Of a stretch of DNA of 38,835 nt, positions 2,757 through 28,620 are shown in pieces. Position 1 is the stretch's first letter; each line of letters begins with the position of its first letter. The notes beneath the pieces were generated by a model. That model did no database searches and was not told the origin of the DNA. It saw only the letters and a program-made list of their open reading frames with translations. The translations under genes were made by a program, and so were the position numbers. This stretch comes from Candidatus Berkelbacteria bacterium CG06_land_8_20_14_3_00_43_10 (GTDB lineage Bacteria; Patescibacteriota; UBA1384; GWA2-35-9; CG2-30-43-20): assembly GCA_002780235.1 (NCBI GenBank), contig PEVO01000025.1, forward strand, positions 305 through 39,139, read 5' to 3'.

Positions 2757-2949
2757 TGTGTTTTTTTCCTTTCTTCAATGGTAACGCGTTAAAGAACAGC
2801 GTTACCTTAAAATTGTGTAATTATACTAAAAGAGATGTATTGAATAGTTCACAAAAATTGTTATTGAGAGTTTTCCCCTTGAGAACGTATCGCTAAATCT
2901 ACAGTTATGATACCATAGATATACATAAAAGTCAAGTGGCTTAGGGAGG

Positions 2950-5146: not shown

Positions 5147-5234
5147 TCAATTCCTTTCTCCCCGCCTTAAGAGAGTAATTGTAGCAGAAAGCGGTGCGTG
5201 ATGTCAATAATGTTACATTTTTGAAATTTGATTT

Positions 5235-5263
5235 TTGACATTTAATCTCCGATATGGTAATAT
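5235..5263 (+). promoter_or_regulatory. rpsT promoter, predicted leaderless
   Basis: TTGACA (5235-5240), a 17-nt spacer, TAATAT (5258-5263), then only 6 nt to the ATG at 5270. No SD. Confidence 0.5.
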
Positions 5264-5269
5264 CGGCTC

Positions 5270-5605
5270 ATGCCTATCACAAAATCAGCTAAAAAATCAC
5301 TTCGGGTATCGCAAACAAAACAAGCGCACAACACCAAAATACGTATCGCGCTTGAAATTGGGTTAAAAAAAGCAACCAAAGAGACGTTTTCTGGCGTCGT
5401 ATCTATTATCGATAAAGCGGCAAAACGCCACGTTATCCATAAAAACAAAGCCGCGCGGCTCAAAAGCCAACTGGTAAAACGGCTTGCCATAACAAAGCCA
5501 GAACCGCGTGCAACAAAAACGCAAACGGTTGCAAAAACAAAAAGTTCTCCAAAAACAAAAGTAAAAAAGACTGTTACTAAAAAAGCAACTGCCAAAAAAG
5601 CATAA
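5270..5605 (+). CDS. rpsT: 30S ribosomal protein S20 with Lys-rich C-terminal tail
   Basis: Contains IDKAAKRHVIHKNKAARLKSQL, typical of S20. The last ~25 residues are a K/T/A-rich extension. Confidence 0.9.
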   Translation: MPITKSAKKSLRVSQTKQAHNTKIRIALEIGLKKATKETFSGVVSIIDKAAKRHVIHKNKAARLKSQLVKRLAITKPEPRATKTQTVAKTKSSPKTKVKKTVTKKATAKKA

Positions 5606-6398: not shown

Positions 6399-7937
6399 TT
6401 AGTCGATCGTTGGTGTGCGGGCAAGCGAGAGCGTTGACCCAAGCCAGTTGATCAGCGGAAAGAGTTCTGCGTCAAACTGTTCTATGGTGTGGTATTCGGT
6501 ATCTGTCACAATCCATTCGGGTATGGTAAACGGGTGTAAACGGAACCGCGCGGTCCACTGTTTTTCTACCCCCATCGCGATCGCATAGGGGAGATATCGT
6601 TCAAAATAATCTGCTTCGTCTTGCTGATAGGGCAGTTCGTGTGGATCAGATAAAAACGCTTTAAATGCCAACCAGTCACGATACGCTTTTTTACCCGTAT
6701 CACTCAAGATGGGAAGTTTTGGTGCGAGCGATATTATCGCCAATGCTGACAATATCATACCTACCCACACGAGTGCTGTTTTTGGGTCGGGGAAAAACCT
6801 AATGCCAAAGATAAACCCGCCAAAACCGATGAAAAAGAGAAGAATACCAAAAACCTTAAATCTCCGGTGATACGCCCCCGGGTCTTGGATAAAATAGTTT
6901 TTTTGCGTGACGATACCGTAGATCCCTGAATAAAAGTGTGCTATTTTTTCTGAAAACATGCGATGTCCCACGCGCAGAGTAATGCTTGAGCGGTCAGCGA
7001 CAACTTGATCCTGTGAAAAGAGTTTAGAGAGTAACAGCCGCTCGAATAACTGTATATCCGTATTGTCGTGCACACTCGCGACTGCTTGGAGAATTGCCCG
7101 CACTTCGTCTTTTTCTGACTTTTCTTTGAGATCGATCTGGCTGGGAAGCGCAAATGTATGGTATCTCCCGATACGAAAATCACCTTCATCGTGTTGGTTG
7201 ACCATTATATATTTACGTCGCGCAAGGTCAATAAGCGTTGCTGCGATAGAACGCTTACTCAAATGTCCGTAAAGGAGCGCTTCCACCGCTGCAGGGGGCA
7301 TATCACCCGGCGGTTGTGAAATAGGTTGTATGTTTGCTGCAAGTTCGCCCAGCTGTAAGCGCCGTAAGATCACAAACAGTAAGATGAGCAGAGCGATTGC
7401 AGGGAGCGCTATCGCCAAAGCAAACCACCATGTGAGCGGGCGTTCGAGGACAAACTGGGCGATCCGTTTTGAAATGGGTAGATGCAGCACACCCTTAGGA
7501 AAATCGATCTCAATAGAATACTTTGACCCGGGGTCTATCGAACTAGACAACAGTTGTATGGTGCTTTGATCACGTGTTTTTTGTTCAACACGGGTGACAC
7601 TGGTATGCACCAGTTGGGGGATAACAGTGAGCGATGCAATCGACGTGTTTGGAGGGAGATGCAGTGTCACGCTCGATGAGGGGATATTATCAGTTGGTTT
7701 ATCAAGAATAGGGATCTGCACGCGGTCAATATCGGATAGGGGCGTAAATATCCGATACACATCTTGTCCGTTGTTGACAACGGTCGTATCGGGGTTGATG
7801 GTCAGATCATACATAATTGGACTAGCGATCGAACCCTTATTTTGATCGGGCAGGAGGATATCTGCTTTAGATGTAACTCCTTGTTTTACAACGACGCCAC
7901 TCCAAACAAGAAGACCGATGATCGCCCAAAACGCCAT
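6399..7937 (-). CDS. DUF2207-like membrane protein
   Basis: 512 aa with an N-terminal signal/TM, ~160-aa extracytoplasmic region, central TM, cytoplasmic segment and C-terminal TM cluster. Family call is by architecture only. Confidence 0.5.
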   Translation of the reverse strand: MAFWAIIGLLVWSGVVVKQGVTSKADILLPDQNKGSIASPIMYDLTINPDTTVVNNGQDVYRIFTPLSDIDRVQIPILDKPTDNIPSSSVTLHLPPNTSIASLTVIPQLVHTSVTRVEQKTRDQSTIQLLSSSIDPGSKYSIEIDFPKGVLHLPISKRIAQFVLERPLTWWFALAIALPAIALLILLFVILRRLQLGELAANIQPISQPPGDMPPAAVEALLYGHLSKRSIAATLIDLARRKYIMVNQHDEGDFRIGRYHTFALPSQIDLKEKSEKDEVRAILQAVASVHDNTDIQLFERLLLSKLFSQDQVVADRSSITLRVGHRMFSEKIAHFYSGIYGIVTQKNYFIQDPGAYHRRFKVFGILLFFIGFGGFIFGIRFFPDPKTALVWVGMILSALAIISLAPKLPILSDTGKKAYRDWLAFKAFLSDPHELPYQQDEADYFERYLPYAIAMGVEKQWTARFRLHPFTIPEWIVTDTEYHTIEQFDAELFPLINWLGSTLSLARTPTID

Positions 7938-7983: not shown

Positions 7984-8078
7984 AAATAAACTCTAAACTC
8001 TAAACTCTAAACAAGTATACGCTTTTTGGAACTTTAAACTTGGAGTTTGTTTAGGGTTTAGAACTTAGAGTTTAATTT
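7984..8078. repeat. AAACTCTAAAC-type tandem repeats arranged as a long inverted repeat
   Basis: (AAACTCT)n AAAC at 7988-8012 faces GTTTGTTTAGGGTTTAGAACTTAGAGTTT at 8046-8074. The block lies immediately downstream of holA. Confidence 0.7.
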
Positions 8079-9062
8079 TTAAGTTTTGCACAGCGCAACT
8101 ACCAACATATCAAACGCTGTAACCTCGTCCATTATACCATGTTTTATCGCGCTGTCGTAGTGCGTAAACAGTCGTAGTGAACGGACAAGGTGTGTGAGCG
8201 ATGTTTTTTTGACAAAACCAAGCGATTTTGACACGACAAACGGGTGCGCTTTTATAGTTTTTGCAATGGCAAACGGTTGGGTAATCCCTGCATTGTGCGC
8301 AAGCGCAATACCGATACATGTCCTATATGTGCCCGCAAGGAGTGCAAATAACCCAAACGTATTTTCGCCTTGCAGGCGGAGTGTATCAAGGACACTCAAT
8401 GCTTTTTGTTGGTTATGTGCAACAACGCTATCGATAAGATCAAACACAACACTAGAAACTGCCGATGGCACTAACAGAGAAACTGTTTCCTTTGTAATCG
8501 ATGGATTATATGCGCGTAATGTTTCGATTGCGTTGGTGAGTCGATACAGGTCGGGTCCCGTTGTGGCGAGTAATTGGTCGCGTGCATCAGGCGTAATAGT
8601 TGCGCTACGCGTTGCCACATGATCATCGCACCATCGTCTAAGAGCAAGTGGTGTCAGTGGTTTAAAATGTTTAACAAGTGCGCTTTGAAGTAACATTTTA
8701 TATACCGTTAACCGCTTGTCACAATCGTTTGGTTCGTAGATAACGCACAATGTTGTATCGGGGATTGTTGGTAACAGATCGGGGAGTAGATCGATGATGT
8801 TTTTGTTATTAGATTCAAGAGCGCCCATTACCACAACCAGACGTTTAGGTGCGCAAAAGGGTATAGACATGCAGTGATGCTCAAGAACCTGCGGGGCAAG
8901 GGACGCACCATCAAGCACGACACAGTTCATGTCGCCATTATTTTTATCCTTGTAACGCACAATAATTTCCCGGAGTGCCTCTCCCGAGCGATATGAATCT
9001 GTTCCATAGACAAAGATGATGTTAGTCATAAAGTCTGTAAAGTCGAAAGTCTGTAAAGTCAT
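8079..9062 (-). CDS. holA: DNA polymerase III subunit delta
   Basis: 327 aa with delta-like N-terminal (IIFVYGTDSYRSGEAL) and helical C-terminal regions; the family is weakly conserved. The first 11 codons lie inside the 9-nt tandem repeat; an alternative ATG is at 9029. Confidence 0.65.
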   Translation of the reverse strand: MTLQTFDFTDFMTNIIFVYGTDSYRSGEALREIIVRYKDKNNGDMNCVVLDGASLAPQVLEHHCMSIPFCAPKRLVVVMGALESNNKNIIDLLPDLLPTIPDTTLCVIYEPNDCDKRLTVYKMLLQSALVKHFKPLTPLALRRWCDDHVATRSATITPDARDQLLATTGPDLYRLTNAIETLRAYNPSITKETVSLLVPSAVSSVVFDLIDSVVAHNQQKALSVLDTLRLQGENTFGLFALLAGTYRTCIGIALAHNAGITQPFAIAKTIKAHPFVVSKSLGFVKKTSLTHLVRSLRLFTHYDSAIKHGIMDEVTAFDMLVVALCKT

Positions 9063-9125
9063 AAAGTCGAAAGTCTATAAAATCTATAAAGTCTATAAAG
9101 TCTATAAAGTCCGTAAAGTCGAAAG
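9037..9125. repeat. tandem repeat, ~9-nt unit (TATAAAGTC / TGTAAAGTC / GAAAGTC)
   Basis: About 10 consecutive units run between the exonuclease stop and into the annotated holA start. Confidence 0.8.
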
Positions 9126-14778: not shown

Positions 14779-15525
14779 TTATTTAATATCTTTTCCCGTC
14801 TCCCACAAAACCTCAAAGATGTTTGTAAAAACCTGTATAAGCAATTTGTCTTTTACCTCAATGAGGAGCGGTCTATCCGCGGAGTGCAGTAGAACACAAT
14901 CCGCCATCACATTAAAATTTCCTGGGTACGAATGAGGGCGTTTTATCAAACGATATTCGTTAATGGTTCTATCAAATCGTGCCAGATCTTGTTGGATATC
15001 TTCCTCGTTAAAAACGATCATTTTCCATTTTATTTTACGCCGTTTGCGGATAGCATCAATTTTTTTGGTGTAGTATGGCGTAATATGCTCGTGCCACTTT
15101 GGACCGATTGTCCCGGCGACTAAGTCTTCGCTTCCCACAGGTAAAGATTGATACTTGTTGAGCCAGTATTTTCGGTACGCTTCCACTCCTTCAAAAATGG
15201 TGATATCTGGTAGATCGCCACTGCGGATGCTTGATAGCTTCTTTGCGATCTCTGTCGCCGTATTAAGCTGGGATTGCGCCTCATCTACGAGTCGGTTGCT
15301 ATCGAGCGCCTGAAAGTGCTGGATGTTCTTTTTCTCAAGCTTAAATACGAGCGTTCGATCTATAAGCTTTTCGAGGGTTTCGTAGACGATATTTCGGTGT
15401 AAACCAGTTTTTTTGATAATGACGCCAGCTGGGGACTGCCCGTTTTCGACAAGAGCGGTGTAGGTAATCGCCTCATTTTTTGAAAGATGTAGTTGCTCAA
15501 GTTGTGAGATAATATCATTTTTCAT
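14779..15525 (-). CDS. TrmB-family transcriptional regulator (module 1)
   Basis: 248 aa. The N-terminal wHTH (LSKNEAITYTALVENGQSPAGVIIKKTGLHRNIVYETLEKLIDRTLV) is typical of TrmB. Paralogous to 17024..17794 and 20277..21026. Confidence 0.75.
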   Translation of the reverse strand: MKNDIISQLEQLHLSKNEAITYTALVENGQSPAGVIIKKTGLHRNIVYETLEKLIDRTLVFKLEKKNIQHFQALDSNRLVDEAQSQLNTATEIAKKLSSIRSGDLPDITIFEGVEAYRKYWLNKYQSLPVGSEDLVAGTIGPKWHEHITPYYTKKIDAIRKRRKIKWKMIVFNEEDIQQDLARFDRTINEYRLIKRPHSYPGNFNVMADCVLLHSADRPLLIEVKDKLLIQVFTNIFEVLWETGKDIK

Positions 15526-15533
15526 ACAATAAT

Positions 15534-15608
15534 ACTATATCAAAATAACCAGTAAAAGTCAATATGTCATCATAAAGTATTGACAAACATATACTTTTGT
15601 GCTATACT
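15534..15608. promoter_or_regulatory. back-to-back divergent promoters (module 1)
   Basis: Plus strand: TTGACA 15580-85, 17-nt spacer, TGcTATACT 15603-08. Minus strand: TTGACT (15562-57), 17-nt spacer, TATAGT (15539-34), then 8 nt to ATG 15525. Confidence 0.55.
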
Positions 15609-15658
15609 ATGTTGTTACGATCGAATTGGGTAACCAATGAGATACGAACGAACCAGAA

Positions 15659-15729
15659 CAATTTGAGCCCTTAGGAAACTTCAATCCCATTTTCCATGGA
15701 GAAGCAACAAGAGGGTTTGGAGAAAAGAT
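15659..15729 (+). promoter_or_regulatory. conserved SD-sequestering leader helix (copy 1)
   Basis: CAATTTGAGCCCT-N40-AGGGTTTGGAGAAAAGAT-ATG. The 5' arm can pair with AGGGTTTGGA, which includes GGA of the SD. Confidence 0.45.
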
Positions 15730-16182
15730 ATGAATGCATGTCAATTTAGACCTTGGGAAGCACCACTGTACATAGACCCTCCACAATGGTTTATGGTGGC
15801 AGCAACGGTTGTGTCATTAATCAGCATTTATTGGCTGATAGGATACCTATTTGGTCCGCTGTGTATGAGTTTCTACACAGCAGGGAAACAAGATGCTGCA
15901 ACGAAATTCTTTGAGAGGTTGAAGCCTTGGGTCTGGGTTGCATTTTGGCCCATACCGGTTGGTTTCATCCTTGTAATGATCGCCTTCGTGGTCGGAATGA
16001 TGTGCTTTGTGATTATGGGGATCATCAACAACATCGGTGAGATTGCGCTAATCATCGCTGGGTTAGCCGGTTTCGCAATCATCGCCGTTCTCGCTTGTGG
16101 CTTATGGGGGGTGTTAATCAATCCAAAATACTTCCCAAGGTTCAAAAGATGGACAAGAAGAATATTTTTGAATCCCGAATAG
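15730..16182 (+). CDS. small membrane protein smp1 (variable cargo, module 1)
   Basis: 150 aa with about 4 TM helices and a basic C-terminus. GGAG SD lies inside the conserved leader. Confidence 0.65.
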   Translation: MNACQFRPWEAPLYIDPPQWFMVAATVVSLISIYWLIGYLFGPLCMSFYTAGKQDAATKFFERLKPWVWVAFWPIPVGFILVMIAFVVGMMCFVIMGIINNIGEIALIIAGLAGFAIIAVLACGLWGVLINPKYFPRFKRWTRRIFLNPE

Positions 16183-16212
16183 TCGCTCTACGCACACTGT
16201 ATTAACAGAGCA

Positions 16213-16250
16213 AGCTCTGCGCCTTTATGGTGCGGAGCTTTTCTTTTGCC
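16213..16250 (+). terminator. intrinsic terminator (module 1)
   Basis: AGCTCTGCGCC-TTTAT-GGTGCGGAGC followed by TTTTCTTTTGCC. Confidence 0.6.
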
Positions 16251-16257
16251 AACGATT

Positions 16258-16689
16258 CTAGATCTGTTTGAGTATCATTTCCGGTGTGACCACCTGGAAG
16301 TGGAACGGGCTATCTTTCATCAAATCACCAAAATCTTTTTGGTCCAAAGTCACAAAGCAGTCAATGGGTAGCTTAAAGCAGATAGCGAGTATAGCAATAT
16401 CCTTTTTAACAACGAATTGAGTAGCGCGCTTGAGATCTTCAGGTTTTGGACTGGGGACTAGTTCAAAGGTATTCTTTTTAATTAGACCTTGGAAAACCTC
16501 ATGTAATTGATTATTGCCTTTTTGCAAAATATTTCTGGAAACCTCTGTGATGATGTCAGAAGAAGTATACGCCTTAACAAGACCGAGTTCTGCGGCATAT
16601 AATAAACTTCCCGATCCGCCCTCTGTGTTAAAAAGACCTGCAAGGATAACGCTTGAATCGAGTACGACTTTCAGCTTATTTGTGACCAT
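16258..16689 (-). CDS. vapC: PIN-domain toxin (VapC-like), module 1
   Basis: 143 aa starting VVLDSSVILAGL. Overlaps the upstream AbrB-like gene by 14 nt. Paralog of 22019..22453. Confidence 0.8.
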   Translation of the reverse strand: MVTNKLKVVLDSSVILAGLFNTEGGSGSLLYAAELGLVKAYTSSDIITEVSRNILQKGNNQLHEVFQGLIKKNTFELVPSPKPEDLKRATQFVVKKDIAILAICFKLPIDCFVTLDQKDFGDLMKDSPFHFQVVTPEMILKQI

Positions 16690-16927
16690 ACTTTTCGTCG
16701 TACATTTCTTGTCTTATTACATCCAAATCCGCAAGCATCTCATCAATGGGGTAGGGTTTGTTTTTGGTAATGTTTTGAGCTTCTTTGACTAATGATTTAT
16801 ATTTCGACAACACAAAACTATTACCAACCTGCGACAAGCTGATCTTACTTCCTTTGCGTAAATTTAAACTCTTCCGCACCGTTGACGGTAATGTAATCTG
16901 CCCCCGGTCTCGCATTTGTATATTCAT
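16676..16927 (-). CDS. vapB: AbrB/SpoVT-type antitoxin (VapB-like), module 1
   Basis: 83 aa with the swapped-hairpin motif RGQITLPSTVRKSLNLRKGSKISL. Confidence 0.75.
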   Translation of the reverse strand: MNIQMRDRGQITLPSTVRKSLNLRKGSKISLSQVGNSFVLSKYKSLVKEAQNITKNKPYPIDEMLADLDVIRQEMYDEKYGHK

Positions 16928-16946
16928 ATTATTATACCTTATAATC

Positions 16947-16975
16947 AGAATAAATCAGAAAATTCTATTTGTCAA
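16947..16975 (-). promoter_or_regulatory. vapBC-1 promoter
   Basis: On the minus strand: TTGACA (16975-70), 17-nt spacer, TATTCT (16952-47). TTCTGAT direct repeats overlap it. Confidence 0.4.
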
Positions 16976-17059
16976 CCCAATCTATCTTTTGATCGCATCC
17001 GGTTAGTGTAATTAGTAATTAGGTCAATTAGAAATTTCTCCCCCTGCTCCTTTCCACGC
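16968..17059. repeat. 92-nt duplicated segment (copy 1 of 2)
   Basis: Nearly identical to 19311..19401 (a few substitutions, 1 indel). Spans the 3' end of trmB-2 (..AWKGAGGEISN*) plus the downstream vapB -35 region. Confidence 0.85.
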
Positions 17060-17794
17060 ACTCCGAAACCCACATCGTTCTAGTTCGGCTATAGCGTGGG
17101 ATTCGACCACAACCATACTTGAGTTATTTTCGTCAATAGTCAACGAACAAACTTGATCGCGCCAGATCCATTTTTCAGCGTTGGTATTCCAGCCATTTTC
17201 AATAAAGCGATGGTCTCGTTTTTCTGAACCAATTGAGCTTTGATATTTTCTAGCATCAGGAGTATCGGGCAATAATATTGTTGATTTTATTTCATTGTCG
17301 TCAGAAAATTTTAAGAATTTATCGTAGAATTCTTTGTCCAAATCATACCAGTGGTTTTTATTTCCGGAAGACCAGATCAAAAGTTCCTCACCTTTCTTGG
17401 CGGTTTGCATAAATATTCGATACCATTCTCGCATACTGATTAGATTTTCGTAGATAGTGATGGTTGGAATTGATATCAGATCCGCCCGTTTGCTTTGCAA
17501 CTCGGGCAAGACCTTTTTCAACTCTCTGGTATTTGATCGGGCAATGTCAACTAGAATATTCGGATCGACAGCATGGAACAAACGATGAGTACCGATTTTT
17601 ACCTGTTTGATTAGACCTTTTTCAATTAGGATTGGCAAGAGAGTGTAGACCATCTGTCTAGTAACGCCGATTTTGCGCCCGATCAAAATCGCTGAAGCGG
17701 GACCGATCAGCAGGCAGGTTAAATATAATTTTGCTTCGGTTGTGCCGTAGCCGAGCTGTGTAAATAATTTAATATAGCGTTCTTGGCTTTTCAT
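17024..17794 (-). CDS. TrmB-family transcriptional regulator (module 2)
   Basis: wHTH TEAKLYLTCLLIGPASAILIGRKIGVTRQMVYTLLPILIEKGLI. The ATG at 17794 is preferred over the in-frame TTG at 17803. Confidence 0.75.
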   Translation of the reverse strand: MKSQERYIKLFTQLGYGTTEAKLYLTCLLIGPASAILIGRKIGVTRQMVYTLLPILIEKGLIKQVKIGTHRLFHAVDPNILVDIARSNTRELKKVLPELQSKRADLISIPTITIYENLISMREWYRIFMQTAKKGEELLIWSSGNKNHWYDLDKEFYDKFLKFSDDNEIKSTILLPDTPDARKYQSSIGSEKRDHRFIENGWNTNAEKWIWRDQVCSLTIDENNSSMVVVESHAIAELERCGFRSAWKGAGGEISN

Positions 17795-17829
17795 ATGTGA
17801 CAAATAATCATTTTACATTATATATGGGT

Positions 17830-17907
17830 ATCATATCAAATATAGAGTATAAAGTCAACAATAGAGACAAGCAAACACTTGACAAACATATACTTTTGTG
17901 CTATACT
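17830..17907. promoter_or_regulatory. back-to-back divergent promoters (module 2)
   Basis: Plus strand: TTGACA 17879-84, 17-nt spacer, TGcTATACT 17902-07, identical over ~30 nt to module 1. Minus strand: TTGACT (17858-53), 17-nt spacer, TATGAT (17835-30). Confidence 0.55.
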
Positions 17908-18038
17908 ACGGTTGTTATTGAAGATTGAAAATCGAAAATCCGCCGTAGCATCTTGAATGAAACATGGATGAATAATCCAAGTGAAATATCAAGAGCGAAG
18001 GAGGACGATCGAAATTCAACTGAAGATAACGCAGATTG

Positions 18039-18099
18039 ACAATTTGAACCCTCGGAAACTTTACCAAATGGAAAGCAACAAAAGGGTTTGGAGAAAGAA
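18039..18099 (+). promoter_or_regulatory. conserved SD-sequestering leader helix (copy 2)
   Basis: CAATTTGAACCCT-N31-AGGGTTTGGAGAAAGAA-ATG. Confidence 0.45.
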
Positions 18100-18543
18100 A
18101 TGATTACAATTATTGTGCTTTGGGGCGTAGTTATACTGCTGACAGCGTTAACAATAACGCTGTCAGGCCAGGAAAATATTCTTGCGCTGGGAATAGTCGT
18201 ATTCCCCCTAATAGGGTGGGCGATAACGAACGACCAGGTAACCCCCCAGCCGGAATATGGGGATAATTTTGAGACTACAAGAAATGTTTCCACCGTTAGG
18301 TGGGACGACATACCGAAAGGTATGTATAAGAAGCTAGGTAAGTTCTACTTGAACTTACCGTCCGGAAAGGCAAAAGTCGTCCGAAAGTTAGACGACTTCG
18401 TGACGGTCAAGGTTGTAGTTTCCCCTCGTGGAGAGAAAAAACTAGCGACGGTTCAAACCGCCAAAAACGAAACGGGCTCGTGGTGGGTCTGGGACCCCTC
18501 GAAAGAGGGGTATAGGGAAGGGCATCTGGAACCTGAAAAATAA
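18100..18543 (+). CDS. small membrane protein smp2 (variable cargo, module 2)
   Basis: 147 aa from ATG 18100, with GGAG 6 nt upstream. Two N-terminal TM helices plus a ~95-aa soluble domain. No similarity to smp1 or smp3. Confidence 0.6.
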   Translation: MITIIVLWGVVILLTALTITLSGQENILALGIVVFPLIGWAITNDQVTPQPEYGDNFETTRNVSTVRWDDIPKGMYKKLGKFYLNLPSGKAKVVRKLDDFVTVKVVVSPRGEKKLATVQTAKNETGSWWVWDPSKEGYREGHLEPEK

Positions 18544-18563
18544 CCTGCGGTTTTGTACCGCAC

Positions 18564-18604
18564 CCCCGCTTGAGTGCAAACTTGAGCGGGGTTTTTCTTT
18601 TGCC
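18564..18604 (+). terminator. intrinsic terminator (module 2)
   Basis: CCCCGCTTGAG-TGCAAA-CTTGAGCGGGG followed by TTTTTCTTTTGCC. A small hairpin TGCGGT-TTTGT-ACCGCA precedes it. Confidence 0.65.
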
Positions 18605-19027
18605 TTATTTTCTTGCCTTCAGTTTTGCGTAGAGTTTGATAAGTTTACTGTCAGACGAAGCAAAGTCGGCGCATTTGTTGTCTATCGCCTCGAGAATAAT
18701 GAGGCAGTCTACTAAACTTACTTGAGGTGTCTCTTTGTAAAGCAAGATCGCGTTTAATATGCGGTTTTTATCTGGCACTTCACAACAGGGTAGCTCCAAA
18801 ATTGCGGATATTCTATCGATGATTATCGCTTTTTCTATTTTGTAATAACTTTTCAGCGTCCACGCGAATTCAAAAATAACGAGTATGGGGATATAGAGAT
18901 TATACATACCGCTCGCAGATTGCGTTATTAACCGTTCCGCTTGATCGTATTTTTCTCGGTGTAGAAAGAAATCGAGGAGAATATTTATATCGATTGCGAT
19001 GGTTTTCATATCGTCACTCGTTGGCAA
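18605..19027 (-). CDS. vapC: PIN-domain toxin (VapC-like), module 2
   Basis: 140 aa with IAIDINILLDFF and VDCLIILEA. A different PIN subfamily from modules 1 and 3. The start may be the ATG at 19009. Confidence 0.75.
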   Translation of the reverse strand: MPTSDDMKTIAIDINILLDFFLHREKYDQAERLITQSASGMYNLYIPILVIFEFAWTLKSYYKIEKAIIIDRISAILELPCCEVPDKNRILNAILLYKETPQVSLVDCLIILEAIDNKCADFASSDSKLIKLYAKLKARK

Positions 19028-19271
19028 TTTCTATTGCCCTTAGTTCGAACGCTTTTTCGATAGCAATATCTGTCTGTGTGCCATCATCGTACTGTTTAAG
19101 AGAGCCGGCAAGATCGAGTATTCTCGGTCTAGTCTTTGGTCGGGCGGTAAACCCATTTTGTGAATAGATTATTTGAAATTTAGTACCTTTTTGTACCGCC
19201 AACCGATCCCGAATTGGTTTTGGGATGGTAAATTGCCCCTTAGAGGTGAGAGTGGTTGTATATGTTTTCAT
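19014..19271 (-). CDS. vapB: AbrB/MazE-type antitoxin (VapB-like), module 2
   Basis: 85 aa with SKGQFTIPKPIRDRLAVQKGTKF. Upstream: TTGACA, 17-nt spacer, TATTGT, and an AAGGA SD. Confidence 0.7.
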   Translation of the reverse strand: MKTYTTTLTSKGQFTIPKPIRDRLAVQKGTKFQIIYSQNGFTARPKTRPRILDLAGSLKQYDDGTQTDIAIEKAFELRAIEIANE

Positions 19272-19310
19272 TGCATTCCTTACATATATACAATAAATCC
19301 TTACTTATAC

Positions 19311-19401
19311 TTTGTCAACCCAATCTATCTTTTGATCGCATCCGGTTAGTGTATTAGTGATTAGGTCAATTAGAAATTTCTCCCCCTGCTCCTTTCCACG
19401 C
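19311..19401. repeat. 92-nt duplicated segment (copy 2 of 2)
   Basis: Near-identical to 16968..17059. Confidence 0.85.
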
Positions 19402-19541
19402 CAGTTCGAAGATAGAACGCTGTCCATTAGCGATGCTCTCGGACTCTATTACAACTGCCACCAGCTCATCTTCGAGCGAAATAATTGCTACTTTATTGCG
19501 ATAGATATTGATCTCGTTGGTAAATGGGTAGATTTTGGGTC
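19366..19541 (-). pseudogene. 3' remnant of a TrmB-family regulator
   Basis: Encodes ..KIYPFTNEINIYRNKVAIISLEDELVAVVIESESIANGQRSIFELAWKGAGGEISN*, which matches the last ~55 residues of trmB-3. The wHTH, promoter and start are missing. Confidence 0.75.
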
Positions 19542-19620
19542 TGGGACCAAAAAAAGGGAGATTATCGAACCGGCCATTGCCGGTAGATGACCCCCACCCA
19601 ACCCGCGGCTTATGCCACAA

Positions 19621-19656
19621 CCCCGCTTGAGTGCGAACTTGAGCGGGGTTTTTTAT
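19621..19656 (+). terminator. orphan copy of the module terminator
   Basis: CCCCGCTTGAG-TGCGAA-CTTGAGCGGGG followed by TTTTTT, with no intact upstream gene. Confidence 0.55.
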
Positions 19657-19698
19657 TTATCGTAAAAACTGTTCGAGAATATATGTTACAATGAATCT

Positions 19699-20229
19699 AT
19701 GGGATTAAAACAAAAGATAAATAATTATGCCTACATAGATAGCCAAAACCTTAATTTAGGAGTACAGAGTTTAGGCTGGAAACTGGATTTCAAAAAGTTT
19801 TGAGTATATTTAACGGAAAAATATCAGGTAAAAATCGCATATCTTTTTATCGGTTATCTTGCTGAAAACCAGGATCTGTATAGTTCGCTTTAAAAAAGCG
19901 GTTATATATTAAAATTTAAACCAGTTTTGCCCGCCAAAGATGGTCAACACAAAGGGAATGTTGATGCTGATATGGTCTTGCAGATTGCCATAGACCACTT
20001 CGAACACCATTTTGATAAAGCGGTAGTTGTCACGAGCGATGGAGATTTTTATTCGGTTGTTAAGTTTTTGTATGGAAAAAAGAAATTAGAAAAAGTAATC
20101 AGTCCTTACTATAAAACATGTTCTTCTCTACTAAAAAGAACAGCCAAAGACAAACTGGTATTTATTAATAATATAAAGAATAAATTAGAATATAAAAAAG
20201 AAAAACACCGCACAAGGACGAAACCTTAA
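19699..20229 (+). pseudogene. NYN/LabA-like domain gene with two in-frame stops
   Basis: One frame reads MGLKQKINNYAYIDSQNLNLGVQSLGWKLDFKKF*VYLTEKYQVKIAYLFIGYLAENQDLYSSL*KSGY..GNVDADMV..VVTSDGDF. TGA lies at 19801-03 and TAA at 19891-93. Confidence 0.7.
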
Positions 20230-20276
20230 GAGGTGTTTTTCACTATAGATTCTGACTAAATTATATCAAAACAATA

Positions 20277-21026
20277 CTATTTGTCAACCCCCGCCCCTTT
20301 CCATGCCAACTCGAAGATGGCGCGGAGGGTTTTGGCGACGGACTCGGATTCGATGATAACCGACAACAGTTCTCCTTGGAGCGACATTATTGCCACTTTA
20401 TTTTCATAAATATCTATTTCATTGGTAAACGGGTATAGTTTTGGGTCAACTAAACGAGTTTCGCGGAGTTGTTCTTGGTCGTGCTTAACGAATTCTCGGT
20501 TAATATCTAAATCGGGCCCAATCGCTTTGACGGTAATGCCTTTCTTGATTCTCCTTCTCAAGTAGGAATTGATGAAAGATTGATCCTGCGAGTAATACCC
20601 CTGCGCAGTTGCAAACGCCAGAATGGTGCCATTTTGGGGTTGTTTTAAGGTGTCCTCGAGGGCAATCTGGATTCCTGATGCTCCCTCGAAAAATTGGACT
20701 CTCGGTTTATCACCAATAGTTTTAACCAGGGCTTTAATTTCTGGGATAACTGATTCTAACCGGTTGATCTTTTCCTCCTGTAATGCCTTGAACTTATCGA
20801 TCGAGATAGAACTGTAGTGGAGGGTTCCGCGGATCTCGACTTCGGAGAGTAAGCCATTTTCAACCATATTTTTAACCAGATCGTAGATAAACGTTCTCTG
20901 AACTCCCGATTCTCGGGCGATATCACTGACTGTTGCTTGACCTAATTTAAGACAAGCAAGGTAGATTTGTGCTTCCTGTGACTTGATACCAAATTGTGAG
21001 AGAATTGTTAAATAATTGTTTTCCAT
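20277..21026 (-). CDS. TrmB-family transcriptional regulator (module 3)
   Basis: 249 aa with wHTH SQEAQIYLACLKLGQATVSDIARESGVQRTFIYDLVKNMVENGLL. Confidence 0.8.
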   Translation of the reverse strand: MENNYLTILSQFGIKSQEAQIYLACLKLGQATVSDIARESGVQRTFIYDLVKNMVENGLLSEVEIRGTLHYSSISIDKFKALQEEKINRLESVIPEIKALVKTIGDKPRVQFFEGASGIQIALEDTLKQPQNGTILAFATAQGYYSQDQSFINSYLRRRIKKGITVKAIGPDLDINREFVKHDQEQLRETRLVDPKLYPFTNEIDIYENKVAIMSLQGELLSVIIESESVAKTLRAIFELAWKGAGVDK

Positions 21027-21033
21027 AGCTTAT

Positions 21034-21120
21034 ATTGTATCAAAAAAATGACAAAAAGTCAATAGCAAGTAGGAAAAAGCGTATCAAACACTTGACAAAA
21101 GTATATTTTTATGCTATAAT
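21034..21120. promoter_or_regulatory. back-to-back divergent promoters (module 3)
   Basis: Plus strand: TTGACA 21092-97, 17-nt spacer, TGcTATAAT 21115-20. Minus strand: TTGACT (21062-57), 17-nt spacer, TACAAT (21039-34), then 7 nt to ATG 21026. Confidence 0.55.
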
Positions 21121-21171
21121 ATACTCATCAAACTGGAAATTTGAAAGAATTGAAAGGGAGACGCAAGTTGA

Positions 21172-21239
21172 CAATTTGAACCCTCATGACACCGTAACCT
21201 GAAATATGGGCGGATTACAGAGAGGGTTTGGAGAATGTA
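21172..21239 (+). promoter_or_regulatory. conserved SD-sequestering leader helix (copy 3)
   Basis: CAATTTGAACCCT-N38-AGGGTTTGGAGAATGTA-ATG. Confidence 0.45.
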
Positions 21240-21572
21240 ATGGAAGATGTAAGTTACGTTGCGATGTATGTATTAATAAGCGGGCTATTCGGATTGTTTT
21301 TCTGGCAATCCGAATCGAAAATTTCCTCATACTGGGGGAAAAATATCGCCAGCCGAGAGTTCCCACCCTTCTGGTATTGGGTGGTGTGGTGCACGGTAAT
21401 GCCTGTTTGCATCGCGATGTGCACCGTATGGTGCATCGGAAGAGTAGCGTGCTGCGTCGCAAAATTTTCGGAAAAAATAGTTAGATTATTGATGGTGCCC
21501 ATTCGGGCGAGTGACTGGGTAAGCCAGCCGGAATGGATAAGATACCAGTTGTGGCTTCGAAGTCGACGCTAA
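21240..21572 (+). CDS. small membrane protein smp3 (variable cargo, module 3)
   Basis: 110 aa from ATG 21240, with GGAG 6 nt upstream. Cys/Trp-rich, 2-3 TM helices, basic amphipathic C-terminus. Confidence 0.55.
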   Translation: MEDVSYVAMYVLISGLFGLFFWQSESKISSYWGKNIASREFPPFWYWVVWCTVMPVCIAMCTVWCIGRVACCVAKFSEKIVRLLMVPIRASDWVSQPEWIRYQLWLRSRR

Positions 21573-21592
21573 CTTGCGACTTATGTCGCGCT

Positions 21593-21636
21593 CCCGCTTG
21601 GTACAGAAATGTATTGAGCGGGGTTTTTCTTTTGCC
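21593..21636 (+). terminator. intrinsic terminator (module 3)
   Basis: CCCGCTTGG-N15-TTGAGCGGG followed by GTTTTTCTTTTGCC. The small hairpin GCGAC-TTAT-GTCGC precedes it. Confidence 0.6.
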
Positions 21637-21682
21637 CAAAATTAGTAACCTCTTAGGTTGCAAAAAATGGTAATGAGGACAA

Positions 21683-21716
21683 CCCCCGTGTCTTTATAGT
21701 GCGGGGGTTTTCTTTT
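21683..21716 (+). terminator. second, orphan module-type terminator
   Basis: CCCCCGTG-TCTTTATA-GTGCGGGGG followed by TTTTCTTTTG. It resembles the module-1 terminator loop and tail, and no ORF lies between it and the previous terminator. Confidence 0.45.
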
Positions 21717-22032: not shown

Positions 22033-22453
22033 CGTATTTCTTGACAGTAGTGTCTTACTGGCAGGATTGGTGTCGACAACTGGCGCGTCTGCGGAGATTC
22101 TGCGCCTTGCCGAAATAGGTGTCGTTGAGCTTATGGTCTGCGATCTTGTTATTGATGAGGTGAAGCGCAACCTGACCAAAAAATTACCCGAGTTTTTGCC
22201 TTATTTTTACACCGCGCTCGAAGTTCTTAAACCGAGAATTACGCAAAACCAAGAAACGGTAGATACAGTTCTCACACGTTTAATTCCAAAAAAGTCAGAT
22301 CAAATTATTATTCAAACCGCACTCATATCAAAACCGGACTATTTTATCACGCTTGATAAAAAACATTTACTTAAACCGGTCGTCCGCACAGCCGTTGCGA
22401 TGCCAGTTATTACTCCAAGTGAGTTTTTGGGAATAATTAGATTTAAAAACTAA
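22019..22453 (+). CDS. vapC: PIN-domain toxin (VapC-like), module 3
   Basis: 144 aa starting [12 protein letters not shown]. Overlaps vapB by 14 nt. Paralog of 16258..16689. Confidence 0.8.
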
Positions 22454-24197
22454 CTAAACCCACCGGCTTGGATCTGCCAGAGTTTTTGGTAGGTGCCTTT
22501 GTGGAGTTTTAATAACATCTCGTGCGTTCCTTCTTCTACGATTGTGCCTTTTTCTAGAACGACAATTCTATCCATCTGTTTGATGGTCGATAAACGGTGG
22601 GCGATGACGATGACGGTCTTGTCTTTAATAAGCGTTTTAAGCGCATCTTGGATGTAACGTTCCGATTGGCTGTCGAGTTGGCTGGTCGCCTCATCAAGAA
22701 TAAGAATCGGTGCATTTTTAAGGATAGCCCGGGCGATCGCCACCCGTTGGCGATCGCCACCAGAAAGCTTGATCCCCCGTTCGCCGACTAACGTATCATA
22801 CCCTTGTGGTAGGTTTTTAATAAACTCGTGGGCATGGGCGAGCGTGGCAGCTTTTTTTACTTCGTCATCGGTGGCGTTTTGTTTGGCATAACGGATATTT
22901 TACATAATACTGCGGTGAAAGAGCAACGCTTCTTGCGGGACGTAGGCGATGGCGCCACGCACACTATCTTGTGTGACCGTTGCAATATTCTGATTATCTA
23001 TGGTAATCTGCCCGCCGTGGACATCAAAAAACGCAACAACAATTTGACAAGCGTCGTTTTGCCCGACCCGGAACTGCCGATCAGTGCCAACCGTTCTTTG
23101 CTCGCAATTTTCAGATTAAATTGTTTGAATATTTTATCGGCATGATATCCAAAAGTCACATCGTTAAATGTTACCGCACCGTTTGATAGTGTAATACTTT
23201 TGGCGTTTGGTGCATCTTGAACTTCATACGGCGTCGTCAGAATATCGGTCATTTCGTTGGCGCTCCCCAAACTATCATAGATACTGCGCATATTGGAAGA
23301 AACGTTCCTTAACCGTTCAAACAACTGCATAATCAAACCTTGGATAAGGGCAAAATCACCGATGGTCAGTGTGCCTTGCCTCCAGAGTACAACGGCGAGC
23401 GCCATCATCCCTACCTCGAGTACCATGGTGAAAAAGTTGACATACGATTCTATGTCGCGGTCAAATAACCATGCTTTGAGTTGGAATCCATATTGTGTCG
23501 AAATCTTTTTCTGATAGAGGGCTTCCTCTGTTGTATATCCGTTAAATATTTTGAGGTTGAGGTTGTTGGCAGTCGTGTCGGCAAGGTGTGCACCGGCGAT
23601 GCTATCGGCGGCGGACTTCTGCAGATCAATTTTCTGACGTTTTTTTGCTGTCGAAAAAGAAAATATCAGATAGATAACGGTCCAGAGTACAAGCGCACCA
23701 ACTAGAGTTAGGTTTCGCAGGCCAAGCGCGATGATAATGAACACGTATCGGATGATACTTTCGGCGATACGCCACGTTGCTTGGTTGGAAAGATCTTCGT
23801 ACGCCCTGATAAATCAGTCGACTTTTTTGGTCAGTGCTCCGCTAAAATTATTCGTAAAAAAGGTATAGGAGTGTTTGTGCAGGTAAGAAAAACAATACGA
23901 AGCAAGGTCTGACATTGTTTTTGTTTGGAATATAATGTTACTCGTCATCGCAGCCCGAGACGTAACCCAGATAATTGCATTGACACCAGCAAAAATGGTT
24001 AGGGTTCGATAAATGATTGGGAGGGTTGTGAAGTCGTTGGCGGCTAGACTGTCGAAGATGTTTTTGTATAAAAATGGGATATACACATACAGTGCGTTGA
24101 CGATGAGAGTAGAAATAATCGATACAAAAACAAGCAGGCGATATTTTTTTGTAAACCGCCAATAAATCGAAATCGTTTGTTTCGATAGATTTTTCAT
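22450..24197 (-). pseudogene. ABC exporter (fused TMD-NBD, MsbA-like), disrupted three times
   Basis: The TMD spans 24197-23817 and continues in the same frame after an in-frame TGA at 23816-14. Walker A is GSSGSGKTT. A frameshift falls at the A6/T6 run 23026-31, and an in-frame TAA at 22902-00 reads SIM*NIRY. The [14 protein letters not shown] signature and ILILDEATS Walker B follow. Confidence 0.8.
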
Positions 24198-24364: not shown

Positions 24365-24413
24365 TTGACAAAACAATAATAACATGTTACCATATAATTA
24401 ACAATAATGTTAA
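24365..24413 (+). promoter_or_regulatory. AbiE operon control region with two palindromes
   Basis: Contains TTGACA 24365-70, palindrome TAACATGTTA 24380-89, TATAAT 24393-98 and palindrome TTAACA-ATAA-TGTTAA 24398-24413. The -35/-10 spacing is not canonical. Confidence 0.4.
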
Positions 24414-24425
24414 CTATGGAGTAAT

Positions 24426-25100
24426 ATGATAAAAGACATTGCAGAAAAGTTATCTCGAGAATTGCGCATTAGTTTGGATAAAGTTGTCAGGGAAGAATGG
24501 GAAATGAAAGTTCTGGAAAAAATATCCCAGAGCGTAATTGGTGATAAGATAATGTTTAAGGGTGGAACCGCCTTGCGTTTAGCCTATAACTCCCCTCGAT
24601 TTTCTGATGATCTAGATTTTTCTCCACTTTCTAAAATTGCATTCGCTGACTACAAAACGGTTATTAAAAGCATCGAAAAGGCGTTTCCCGAAATTGTTAT
24701 CTCCGATATATACAACAAGTACTATACCTATTTATCTGAATATAAAATTACGGATCCGCTTTTGTCTCAAAACATTACTCTGAAAATTGAACTCTCCAAA
24801 AGAAAAAGCCAATACAAATCGTCCTTGCGTTTAATTAGCTCCCCATCATCAAACTTGCAACCATTATTTCAGGTCGAAGAAATCGATGAAATTTTGAAGG
24901 ACAAACTAAAAACAATACAAGAGCGCAAACTGCCTCGCGATTTGTTTGATATTTGGTTTTTGTGCCAAAAACTTCGTTTACCGATGCCAGATATTACCTT
25001 GAAGATCGATAAAAAATTGATTCGGCAGGAACTTTCTAAATATTTGCCCAAAAACTATCAAACGGTTACCACGCAACTTATGGAGAAGTATGGCAAATAA
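24426..25100 (+). CDS. abiEii: AbiEii/AbiGii-family nucleotidyltransferase toxin
   Basis: 224 aa with MFKGGTALRLAYNSPRFSDDLDFS and RDLFDIWFL motifs. GGAG SD. Confidence 0.8.
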   Translation: MIKDIAEKLSRELRISLDKVVREEWEMKVLEKISQSVIGDKIMFKGGTALRLAYNSPRFSDDLDFSPLSKIAFADYKTVIKSIEKAFPEIVISDIYNKYYTYLSEYKITDPLLSQNITLKIELSKRKSQYKSSLRLISSPSSNLQPLFQVEEIDEILKDKLKTIQERKLPRDLFDIWFLCQKLRLPMPDITLKIDKKLIRQELSKYLPKNYQTVTTQLMEKYGK

Positions 25101-25674
25101 CAGATTAAAAGTCCTTGGTACTCTTGATAAAGATTACTTTTCATCGTCTGATTTGCAAAAGATTTTTAAATTACCACGCGCAAGTTTACTAGTGACTTTA
25201 TCGCGTCTGCAAAAACGAGGAGAAATAAAGCGGATTATTAAAGGATATTATCAAGTAGCCGATAAACCAATTAATACTCAAAAGATAGCGACACAGATAT
25301 ATCAACCGAGTTATATTTCTTTTGAAAGCGCGCTGTCGCGCTACGGGGGGATAAGCCAAGTACCTTATTGTTTGACGCTGGCAACCACCAATAAACCAAA
25401 AAAAATAGTTCTCGACAAGGAAGATATTGAGTACCGCAAAATTAAGCAGGATTTACTCTTTGGATTTAACCTTATCGACGGCGTGTATGTGGCGACAGCG
25501 GAAAAAGCTCTGCTCGATACATTGTATATGGTGTCAAAAGGGAGATTGCAAATTGACTTGACCGTTATTGACAAAAAAGTATTTGACAAAATAAAGTTGT
25601 TACTCTGGTCCAAACAGTATCCACCAGCGGTTTTGCGTCTTATTAATAGTTTATATCAAGAACGAACCGATTAA
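25090..25674 (+). CDS. abiEi: AbiEi-family antitoxin / transcriptional regulator
   Basis: 194 aa with an N-terminal wHTH (FSSSDLQKIF..LVTLSRLQKRGEIKRIIKGYY) and PSYISFESALSRYGGISQVP, typical of AbiEi. Overlaps abiEii by 11 nt. Confidence 0.75.
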   Translation: MANNRLKVLGTLDKDYFSSSDLQKIFKLPRASLLVTLSRLQKRGEIKRIIKGYYQVADKPINTQKIATQIYQPSYISFESALSRYGGISQVPYCLTLATTNKPKKIVLDKEDIEYRKIKQDLLFGFNLIDGVYVATAEKALLDTLYMVSKGRLQIDLTVIDKKVFDKIKLLLWSKQYPPAVLRLINSLYQERTD

Positions 25675-28533: not shown

Positions 28534-28614
28534 TCCCATACTACCTAATCCCATACTACCTAATACCTACTACCTAATACCTACTACCTAATACCTAATA
28601 CCTACTACCTAATA
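28534..28614. repeat. TACCTAATACC / CTACTACC tandem repeat array
   Basis: Reads CCCATACTACCTAAT x2, then (ACCTACTACCTAAT/ACCTAAT)n. Located between rpsO and the pilin-like gene. Confidence 0.8.
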
Positions 28615-28620
28615 CAGGTT

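Follow-up and report, generated by a model that had tools for sequence, protein, structure and literature searches.

A candidate Shine-Dalgarno-occluding hairpin in a recurring promoter-leader cassette of Berkelbacteria

A stretch of 38,835 nucleotides (nt) from Candidatus Berkelbacteria bacterium CG06_land_8_20_14_3_00_43_10 (contig PEVO01000025.1) contains three copies of an RNA element, each located directly upstream of the start codon of a small gene. This whole stretch (38.8 kb) is referred to as the window, and positions are counted from its first letter. The element is composed of an outer helix (P1), conserved junctions and an inner hairpin (P2), and the 3' strand of P1 runs into the Shine-Dalgarno sequence (SD). 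Our preferred interpretation, a tentative one at a little under even confidence, is a lineage-specific SD-occluding hairpin that gates translation in a conserved promoter-leader cassette with interchangeable cargo genes.

The copies were recognized by two arms of 13 nt. On the plus strand of the window, the 5' arm (CAATTTGARCCCT) matches exactly only at 15659, 18040 and 21172, and the 3' arm (AGGGTTTGGAGAA) only at 15712, 18083 and 21223. Further arm copies with fewer than 1-2 mismatches do not occur in the window. By simple arithmetic, about 0.001-0.002 exact matches to a 13-mer are expected by chance in 2 x 38.8 kb. Both arms appear in the same order each time, so that the copies span 15659-15724, 18040-18095 and 21172-21235. 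The arms enclose 40, 30 and 38 nt (copies 1, 2 and 3). The original prediction, made from the sequence of the window, had already listed this threefold pattern; its start of copy 2 (18039) and the length enclosed there (31 nt) each had to be corrected by one, and its other two lengths stand. It was also right about position 15667, which is G in copy 1 and A in copies 2 and 3; the opposite base is U, so that a G·U pair replaces an A-U pair and pairing is kept. The start codons are the ATGs at 15730, 18100 and 21240, at a distance of 6-7 nt from the GGAG of the SD. Leader lengths estimated from the promoter positions are about 115, 186 and 113 nt, close to the 115, 185 and 115 nt proposed before. 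Each copy has a promoter, the hairpin, an SD, an ATG, an open reading frame (ORF) and an intrinsic terminator in identical arrangement, and the three copies are separate monocistronic units. A conserved upstream ORF was ruled out upon reading of the sequences: ATGs within the element open unrelated frames and are missing from the relatives, as the original prediction had stated for the copies in the window.

P1 has 11 base pairs (bp). Its 5' strand (11 nt) has the consensus UUUGARCCCUY, and its 3' strand (11 nt) is GAGGGUUUGGA, continuing into GGAG. The junction J1/2 (5-8 nt) leads from the 5' strand to P2 (17-32 nt), and J2/1 (6-8 nt) leads back to the 3' strand. There are two junction versions. 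Copies 1 and 2 have type A, with (A)GGAAA as J1/2 and CAACAA as J2/1. All other copies have type B, with AUGACA, AAGACA or GCGACA as J1/2 and AYUACRGA as J2/1. An A-rich spacer and the AUG follow (9-11 nt for this tail, including the last G of GGAG). Matches to the covariance model, which include flanking sequence and the ATG, are 65-83 nt long. The spacing between the arms varies from 28 to 46 nt across the family. Compared pair by pair, the copies have on average 95% identity in the 3' strand of P1, 76% in its 5' strand and 31% in P2.

The individual copies were segmented as follows, all on the plus strand. In copy 1, the P1 5' strand UUUGAGCCCUU is at 15662-15672 (sequence match, fold and alignment), J1/2 (AGGAAA, type A) at 15673-15678 (manual segmentation, then checked), P2 with the base CUUC...GAAG at 15679-15704 (fold, segmentation and RNAalifold), J2/1 (CAACAA, type A) at 15705-15710 (segmentation), and the P1 3' strand GAGGGUUUGGA at 15711-15721, with the SD GGAG at 15719-15722. 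In copy 2, the P1 5' strand UUUGAACCCUC is at 18043-18053 (sequence match, fold and segmentation) and P2 (CUUU.CC/GGAAAG) at 18059-18075 (fold and segmentation). The 3' strand AAGGGUUUGGA is at 18082-18092; the top pair is a C·A mismatch, and the SD is at 18090-18093. Copy 3 has the same 5' strand as copy 2 (UUUGAACCCUC, 21175-21185; sequence match, fold and segmentation). Its junctions of type B were assigned from the alignment: J1/2 is AUGACA (21186-21191) and J2/1 is AUUACAGA (21214-21221), and seven relatives have this junction type as well. P2, with the base CCG...CGG, lies between them at 21192-21213 (fold and alignment), and the 3' strand GAGGGUUUGGA at 21222-21232, with the SD at 21230-21233.

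Relatives of the element were sought via contigs that encode homologues of TrmB (the regulator family encoded next to each copy, see below), by one pattern scan of metagenomes and with a covariance model (R1) built from the first eight copies. Beyond the window, seven full copies and one truncated copy were found, all in close relatives, so that the full family has ten members. These copies are on the minus strand of their contigs (L011, 3677-3604; L012, 650-569; L013, 2059-1984; L016, 3227-3160, on a contig shared with L032; L027, 6587-6505; L121, 1241-1175; L123, 1012-940). The truncated copy, in L120 at about 62-45 (minus strand), has the 5' strand only, and the contig end cuts the rest. 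Homologues of the TrmB proteins from the window are named from Berkelbacteria and other Patescibacteria. The nearest genome is that of Berkelbacteria bacterium GW2011_GWA2_35_9, whose TrmB is 95% identical. The same species has been assembled from many metagenomes, and the elements are identical in every one.

The distribution is narrow. When R1 was run on L112-L115 and on 80 genome loci with a TrmB homologue of 33-57% identity, no match was better than E = 0.3; the element is thus confined to a narrow clade. The more distant relatives keep the divergent regulator, the consensus promoter, a short leader and the small gene, and have no P1-P2. In the metagenome pattern scan, which combined type B junctions with the 3' strand, 18 stretches matched and only L016 and L027 were real, the others being chance matches within GC-rich genes. 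A scan of viral contigs gave three matches, none scoring as a family member (best 19.5 bits); one of them (L117) falls inside a coding region. No Rfam 15 family matched anywhere in the window at the gathering threshold. At E <= 10, positions 15400-21500 gave only chance-level matches, none of them on the element in sense orientation, and at E <= 1 there was no match on the element in L012, L013, L027, L121 and L123. Literature searches did not find a description of such an element. In two distant Berkelbacteria-like loci that have no P1-P2 (L033, about 4825-4850, and L034, about 4625-4645, both minus strand), a tiny hairpin CCUU-N3-7-AAGG(AG) is present at the SD of the gene divergent from TrmB. 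This could represent the same principle in minimal form, or a chance occurrence.

The original prediction described the helix that is now called P1, with one compatible substitution. P1 is indeed conserved, and it is found next to regulators of only 21-29% identity and next to unrelated cargo genes, but it is only the outer part of a two-helix element, and the covariation is in P2. All ten P2 sequences are distinct, and eight of the ten fold alone with closed terminal pairs (for copy 1 and L012, P2 folded alone has an inner stem only). The three basal pairs of P2 alternate between C-G, U-A and G-C when the copies are aligned under guidance of the model (A5). Seven cells have two-sided compensatory changes, as many as were obtained in 1 of 500 shuffles, and two of the three base pairs carry double changes. 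For P1, 91.8% of the cells are paired; shifting the partner strand by 1-3 columns lowers this to 34-66%. P1 and the basal part of P2 were also obtained independently with RNAalifold. G·U accounts for three of the 11 P1 pairs and would turn into A·C on the opposite strand or in DNA; the complementarity therefore exists only in plus-strand RNA. This strand specificity bears out the earlier view that conservation is at the RNA level. The element is located in the 5' untranslated region (UTR), directly before the start codon.

Folding of the leaders, which had been proposed as a check, gave P1 in the minimum free energy (MFE) structure of all three window copies, both alone and in contexts of about 145 nt. 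P1 is also present in the MFE folds of L011, L012 and L016. L013 forms only the upper half (CCCUC/GAGGG), and P1 is absent from the MFE fold of L027. In the latter (6560-6600, minus strand), the MFE structure prefers a hairpin GCAAG/CUUGC as a competitor of P1, with the top of the P1 5' strand forming part of it; conservation of this hairpin does not extend to the other copies. According to this fold, it could be an anti-sequestor.

The earlier claim that the helix covers the GGA of the SD is upheld for most copies, but the predicted occlusion is modest. In partition functions of the full leaders, seven of the ten copies have the SD G-G-A paired to the 5'-strand UUU, with a probability of 0.77-1.0 at 15 C and 0.5-0.9 at 37 C. 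For the three window copies, the probability that G-G-A is unpaired is 0.00-0.03 at 15 C and reaches 0.1-0.44 at 37 C. The mean opening energy for positions -14 to -5 is 6.1 kcal/mol at 37 C, compared with 4.0 +/- 2.1 kcal/mol for 26 other gene starts in the window; at 15 C, the values are 9.3 and 6.1 +/- 3.0 kcal/mol. In the predictions, SD occlusion is real yet moderate, and P1 does not deliver it in every relative.

These features can be assembled into a mechanism. The conserved cassette begins with a consensus extended -10 promoter, followed by a predicted 5'-proximal hairpin, an A/C-rich single strand, P1-J-P2-J-P1, and an A-rich spacer with the ATG, the element being its final block in the 5' UTR. 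The 5' strand UUUGARCCCUY would pair with GAGGGUUUGGA, which continues into the GGAG of the SD. In the predicted helix, a G-C-rich clamp (CCCU/AGGG) would keep the weak, G·U-rich end (UUUG/UUGGA, with the pairs U·G, U·G and U-A) over the SD G-G-A. Because the clamp would hold the weak end over the SD, this end would have to open before the cargo gene is translated, and the hairpin would throttle or gate initiation post-transcriptionally. The 30S ribosomal subunit probably waits on the adjoining unstructured A/C-rich stretch; this conserved single-stranded stretch is a plausible standby site for it. The cargo consists of strongly transcribed genes for small hydrophobic proteins (23-150 amino acids, aa), with TrmB as their probable regulator. 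A trans-acting partner common to the copies (the ribosome, a protein or a small RNA, sRNA) may recognize the element, as suggested by the 3' strand, which hardly varies, and by the conservation of the junctions. The copies, their position, the predicted structures, the P2 covariation and the narrow distribution are shown by the analysis, whereas the translational effect, the standby binding and any trans-acting factor are inferred.

Several observations weigh against this interpretation. Double changes are absent from the P1 pairs; one-sided variation, in every case compatible with G·U, is seen in five pairs, and mismatches in four. According to a tally, compatible and disruptive substitutions in P1 are about equally frequent, and covariation thus does not prove selection on P1 pairing. 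The case for the SD-masking helix rests on conservation, not on covariation. Helix-breaking substitutions without compensation, which had been named in advance as a refutation, were encountered in some of the relatives. L013 loses 4 of the 11 P1 pairs, three of them among those nearest to the SD. Two pairs are lost in L011, though an additional C-G pair there extends to the final G of GGAG, and the top two in L123. The family sample is small, with ten sequences that all come from a single narrow clade. The final G of GGAG is mostly unpaired. In full-leader folds, the SD is mostly unpaired in L011, has another partner in L013 and pairs with the coding region in L123. The cost of opening the SD is only about one standard deviation above that of other genes in the window. 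Between modules, the leaders form a mosaic of segments (e.g., copy 3 and L016). Recombination between modules happens, and it may contribute to the observed identity.

The modules are old, because their regulators are only 21-29% identical and their cargo genes are unrelated. Identity is found in discrete blocks (the promoter, GUUGUUA, ACGMA..GACAA, both P1 strands and the junctions), with diverged or indel-bearing stretches between them. As read from the sequences, this block-wise identity is the signature of purifying selection on the blocks rather than of recent duplication. What recombination cannot account for is that P2, the central 17-32 nt of the element, is different in each of the copies. 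The much stronger conservation of the 3' strand than of the 5' strand suggests that a ribosome-binding function locks the former and that the latter follows by complementarity, which would explain why covariation is missing from P1.

In several well-known types of leaders (fourU and ROSE thermometers, type I toxin leaders, the rpoS leader), the upstream strand of a leader hairpin masks the SD. The element is outside these families, and its relation to them is best considered together with the alternative explanations. One alternative, which we regard as unlikely, is that the hairpin is an operator for a shared trans-acting factor. This might be an sRNA that pairs with the 5' strand and frees the SD, or a repressor protein with the hairpin and its junctions as binding site; the hairpin would then represent the OFF (or ON) state of a switch and not a fixed throttle. 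In rpoS-type leaders, a hairpin hides the SD, and sRNAs that pair with the upstream strand activate translation. The element resembles them in that the upstream strand would act as anti-SD, and a trans-acting RNA that serves several modules would be in keeping with conservation in the absence of covariation. The sequences of both strands and of the junctions (ANGAMA / WACA(G)AR) are indeed conserved and do not covary, across modules with regulators of 21-29% identity, and the roughly 12 nt upstream of P1 are conserved as well. In the sRNA version, the partner transcript would be complementary to UUGACAAUUUGAACCCUC or AGGGUUUGGAG. However, a search of the 38.8-kb window for complements of the 5' strand with up to two mismatches gave only chance-level matches inside genes, so that no sRNA partner was found there. 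Neither an Hfq-type factor nor a candidate binding protein was identified, two junction versions exist (type A in copies 1 and 2, type B elsewhere), and the resemblance to rpoS is one of logic only. A more far-reaching reading appears rather doubtful to us. Here, the hairpin would be the recognition module of a new riboregulatory system specific to the candidate phyla radiation (CPR): a shared partner (protein, sRNA or ligand) would read the invariant strands and the junctions and co-ordinately switch exchangeable genes for small membrane proteins. In addition, cargo would be swapped between TrmB modules precisely at the 5' junction that the hairpin marks. It is similarly doubtful that the hairpin has no translational role. 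It would then be a stabilizing or processing hairpin (protecting the ribosome-binding site from RNases, or acting as an RNase III site), or a passenger of a cassette that recombines between modules (concerted evolution). This would agree with the mosaic make-up of the leaders in comparison with the TrmB genes: between copy 3 and L016, the TrmB proteins are 95% identical, yet the upstream leader segments and the cargo genes differ, and homology ends at the ATG. It would also agree with a decayed fourth module (see below), which is evidence for module rearrangement, and with the modest increase in SD opening cost. However, identity is limited to short blocks (arms and junctions) on both sides of an ever-different P2, and gene-conversion tracts should not skip the central 17-32 nt. 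Moreover, the 3' strand always ends in the SD, 6-7 nt from the ATG, even in the intercistronic copy of L011.

The remaining alternatives appear weaker still. There is a slim chance that the hairpin is an RNA thermometer of the fourU type, in which the pairs between the U-run and the SD melt on warming and free translation. Like fourU and ROSE thermometers, the element places a U-run on the SD purines via A-U and G·U pairs (U·G, U·G and U-A over the G-G-A, at the weak helix end) at the base of a 5' UTR hairpin just before the start codon, and the unpaired probability of G-G-A climbs from 15 C to 37 C in the three window copies. This melting prediction is unspecific, however, since any helix melts with temperature. 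There are three U and not four (UUUG, with G at the fourth position opposite U), and they are at the end of an 11-bp helix that is clamped by CCCU/AGGG. The fourU model (Rfam RF01795) and all other thermoregulator models gave no match at E <= 10. A thermometer has no need of the second helix, which is always present, or of conserved junctions. The records name groundwater samples (GW2011; ERZ978390), and groundwater is a thermally stable habitat. We consider it very unlikely that the element is a small-molecule riboswitch with the internal loop as ligand pocket and P1, containing the SD, as expression platform. In small riboswitches such as NMT1/xanthine and THF-II folE, a rod-like hairpin combines a conserved internal loop with a distal stem that varies, and its closing helix contains the SD. 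The layout of the element, with its conserved asymmetric junctions, variable distal helix and SD in the P1 3' strand, is similar. Against this, no Rfam 15 family matches, there are two junction versions, the roughly ten members come from one narrow clade, and the downstream genes are heterogeneous, coding for unrelated small hydrophobic proteins without a common biochemical theme. Finally, the arms might act in DNA, as a TrmB operator or, like attC, as a site of recombination where the cassette joins its cargo. In DNA, AACCCTC/GAGGGTT forms an inverted repeat of 7 bp without mismatches. Upon reading of the sequence, TTGACAATTTGAAC is similar to the TTGAC-N5-GTCA palindromes of the TrmB promoters, and cargo replacement starts just past the element. 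Yet the arm spacing (28-46 nt) is unfit for a dimeric operator, the three G·U pairs are functional only in plus-strand RNA, and the TTGACA is missing in copy 1 and in L123. The copy in L011 is 358 nt from the promoter, and identical arms occur beside regulators with diverged helix-turn-helix (HTH) domains. The arms (TTTGAAC ... GTTTGGA) do not fit the attC R-box consensus (RYYYAAC/GTTRRRY), and the genes called in the flanks of copy 3, about 10 kb in each direction, include no integrase. For these reasons, among them the variation in spacing, the G·U pairing and the intercistronic location of the L011 copy, we rejected both the DNA operator and the attC site, and consider a DNA-level element highly improbable. 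A kink-turn or loop-E reading of the junctions did not fit either, in a comparison by hand with the consensus that was not rigorous.

For the SD-occluding hairpin that we prefer, type I toxin mRNAs provide another point of comparison. Those of tisB, zorO, hok and aapA1 have a leader with a sequestered SD and a ribosome standby site. The cassettes share small hydrophobic membrane proteins, a structured leader, an SD that is complementary to an upstream sequence and occluded by it, and an adjoining unstructured region. However, most cargo proteins have 64-150 aa and are larger than typical type I toxins (<60 aa), and the partner gene codes for a divergent TrmB-type transcription factor. A search for an antisense RNA or a promoter facing the leaders, which is a weak test, found no conserved minus-strand site, only weak 9/12 matches in the AT-rich promoter region.

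Very few regulatory RNAs are known from CPR bacteria, which are uncultured and have tiny genomes. The element would be a clade-specific translational control element on a recurring module of a TrmB-type regulator and a strongly promoted small membrane protein. If this is true, transcriptional and post-transcriptional control are stacked on interchangeable small membrane proteins. SD occlusion by a leader hairpin has long been established, and the conceptual gain is modest: the element is a new, narrowly distributed case of a familiar means to throttle translation. It is also a clean candidate cis-regulatory RNA, short and portable, and can be tested in reporters.

The promoters upstream of the element are nearly invariant, consisting of TTGACA, a 17-bp spacer and the extended -10 box TGCTATAMT. 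A 29-nt promoter, TTGACAAA-N-TGCTATAMT, precedes every window copy (starting at 15580, 17879 and 21092), and there were no such matches in shuffled sequences. The promoter of copy 1 (15580-15608, plus strand; TTGACA, 17-bp spacer and the extended -10 box TGCTATACT) agrees with 11 of 12 consensus positions and has the TG. Copy 2 (17879-17907, plus strand; found by pattern match) has the identical 29-mer, and the promoter of copy 3 (21092-21120, plus strand) agrees with 12 of 12 positions, also with the TG. All ten full copies have a consensus promoter, and in seven of them the motif starts 48-50 nt past the -10 box. In L011, the element is located between two cistrons, directly upstream of the second one and 358 nt from the promoter; this placement ties the element to the downstream start codon and not to the promoter. 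A second promoter at TTGACAAT was ruled out: there is no usable -10 box at 17 bp, and the TTGACA is absent in copy 1, L123 and L011. The intrinsic terminators, all of them strong, are at 16212-16240 (copy 1), 18564-18591 (copy 2) and 21592-21623 (copy 3), all on the plus strand.

Between promoter and element, the upstream leader of copy 1 (15615-15656, plus strand; the start is the approximate transcription start site as judged from the -10 box) is predicted to fold into a 5'-proximal hairpin, AUUGG-GUAA-CCAAU, followed by the single-stranded A/C-rich sequence GAGAUACGAACGAACCAG. This segment is conserved in L011, L012, L016, L121 and L123. The conserved stretch of about 12 nt upstream of P1 reads ACGMA..UGACAA. 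In most leaders (15615-15650 in the window; L011, L012, L016 and L121), the first 35 nt or so form a hairpin with a 4-nt loop of the GNRA or a similar type (GUAA, GCAA, ACAA or AUAA, and GAAA in the type of copy 3 and L027). Its stem has some compensating changes (a G·U pair in L016, G-C in L121), and it is probably a 5' stabilizer.

Every unit in the window is divergent from a gene for an HTH regulator of the TrmB family (PF01978 in Pfam, E = 3e-10 to 5e-14). The three regulator genes are on the minus strand, at 14779-15525, 17024-17794 (assigned by Pfam) and 20277-21026, and their products have a mutual identity of just 21-29%. The TrmB genes appear to be leaderless, with extended -10 boxes on the minus strand at 15534-15539 and 21034-21039 that end 8 and 7 nt before the ATGs at 15525 and 21026, respectively.

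The cargo genes in the window, all on the plus strand, code for a hydrophobic protein of 150 aa without a known family (15730-16182), a protein of 147 aa with a hydrophobic N-terminus (18100-18543) and a hydrophobic protein of 110 aa (21240-21572), the last also being called with 110 aa in L007 and L010. These three proteins are unrelated to one another. Among the eight copies that were translated, the cargo ORFs have 23, 45, 64, 77, 110, 118, 147 and 150 aa, and most start with a hydrophobic segment. The cargo proteins had no matches in Pfam, NCBIfam and PADLOC. In a comparison of window copy 3 (21027-21700) with L016 (2700-3420, minus strand), where the TrmB proteins are 95% identical, the DNA is homologous throughout the regulator, both promoters and the element, but not in the upstream leader segment, and the homology breaks off exactly at the cargo ATG. 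The cargo of L016 is a 23-aa ORF, followed by an unrelated ORF of 229 aa (2293-2982, minus strand).

The element had also been considered as a target for neighbouring PIN RNases, but nothing links it to them. A recurrent order on the same strand is TrmB, MazE/AbrB-type antitoxin, PIN toxin (in the window at 16258-17794 and 18605-19271, both minus strand; in L011 at 4109-5556; in L119 and L120), so that these VapBC pairs follow the TrmB genes on the TrmB strand. Because this order recurs, the PIN pairs belong to the regulator side of the modules and not to the leader side. The decayed fourth module is at 19311-19660. A 92-nt segment at 19311-19401 is about 98% identical to 16968-17059, the ORF at 19366-19620 (minus strand) is a remnant of a TrmB C-terminus, and the terminator at 19619-19650 is a copy of that at 18564-18591. 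This looks like a deletion that took the TrmB N-terminus, the promoters, the leader and the cargo gene.

Further features were noted elsewhere in the window. An ABC transporter gene at 22450-24197 (minus strand) is split into at least three ORF fragments (22450-22743, 22998-23744 and 23814-24197) and is probably a pseudogene. A toxin-antitoxin pair of the abortive-infection type (AbiEii/AbiEi) is encoded at 24426-25674 (plus strand), and its promoter (24365-24393) resembles the cassette promoter. Short intergenic tandem repeats with periods of 7, 9 and 14 nt are found at 28539-28615, 9024-9120, 7987-8012 and 639-667; examples are TACTACCTAATACC, repeated 5 times, and AGTCTATAA, repeated 11 times.

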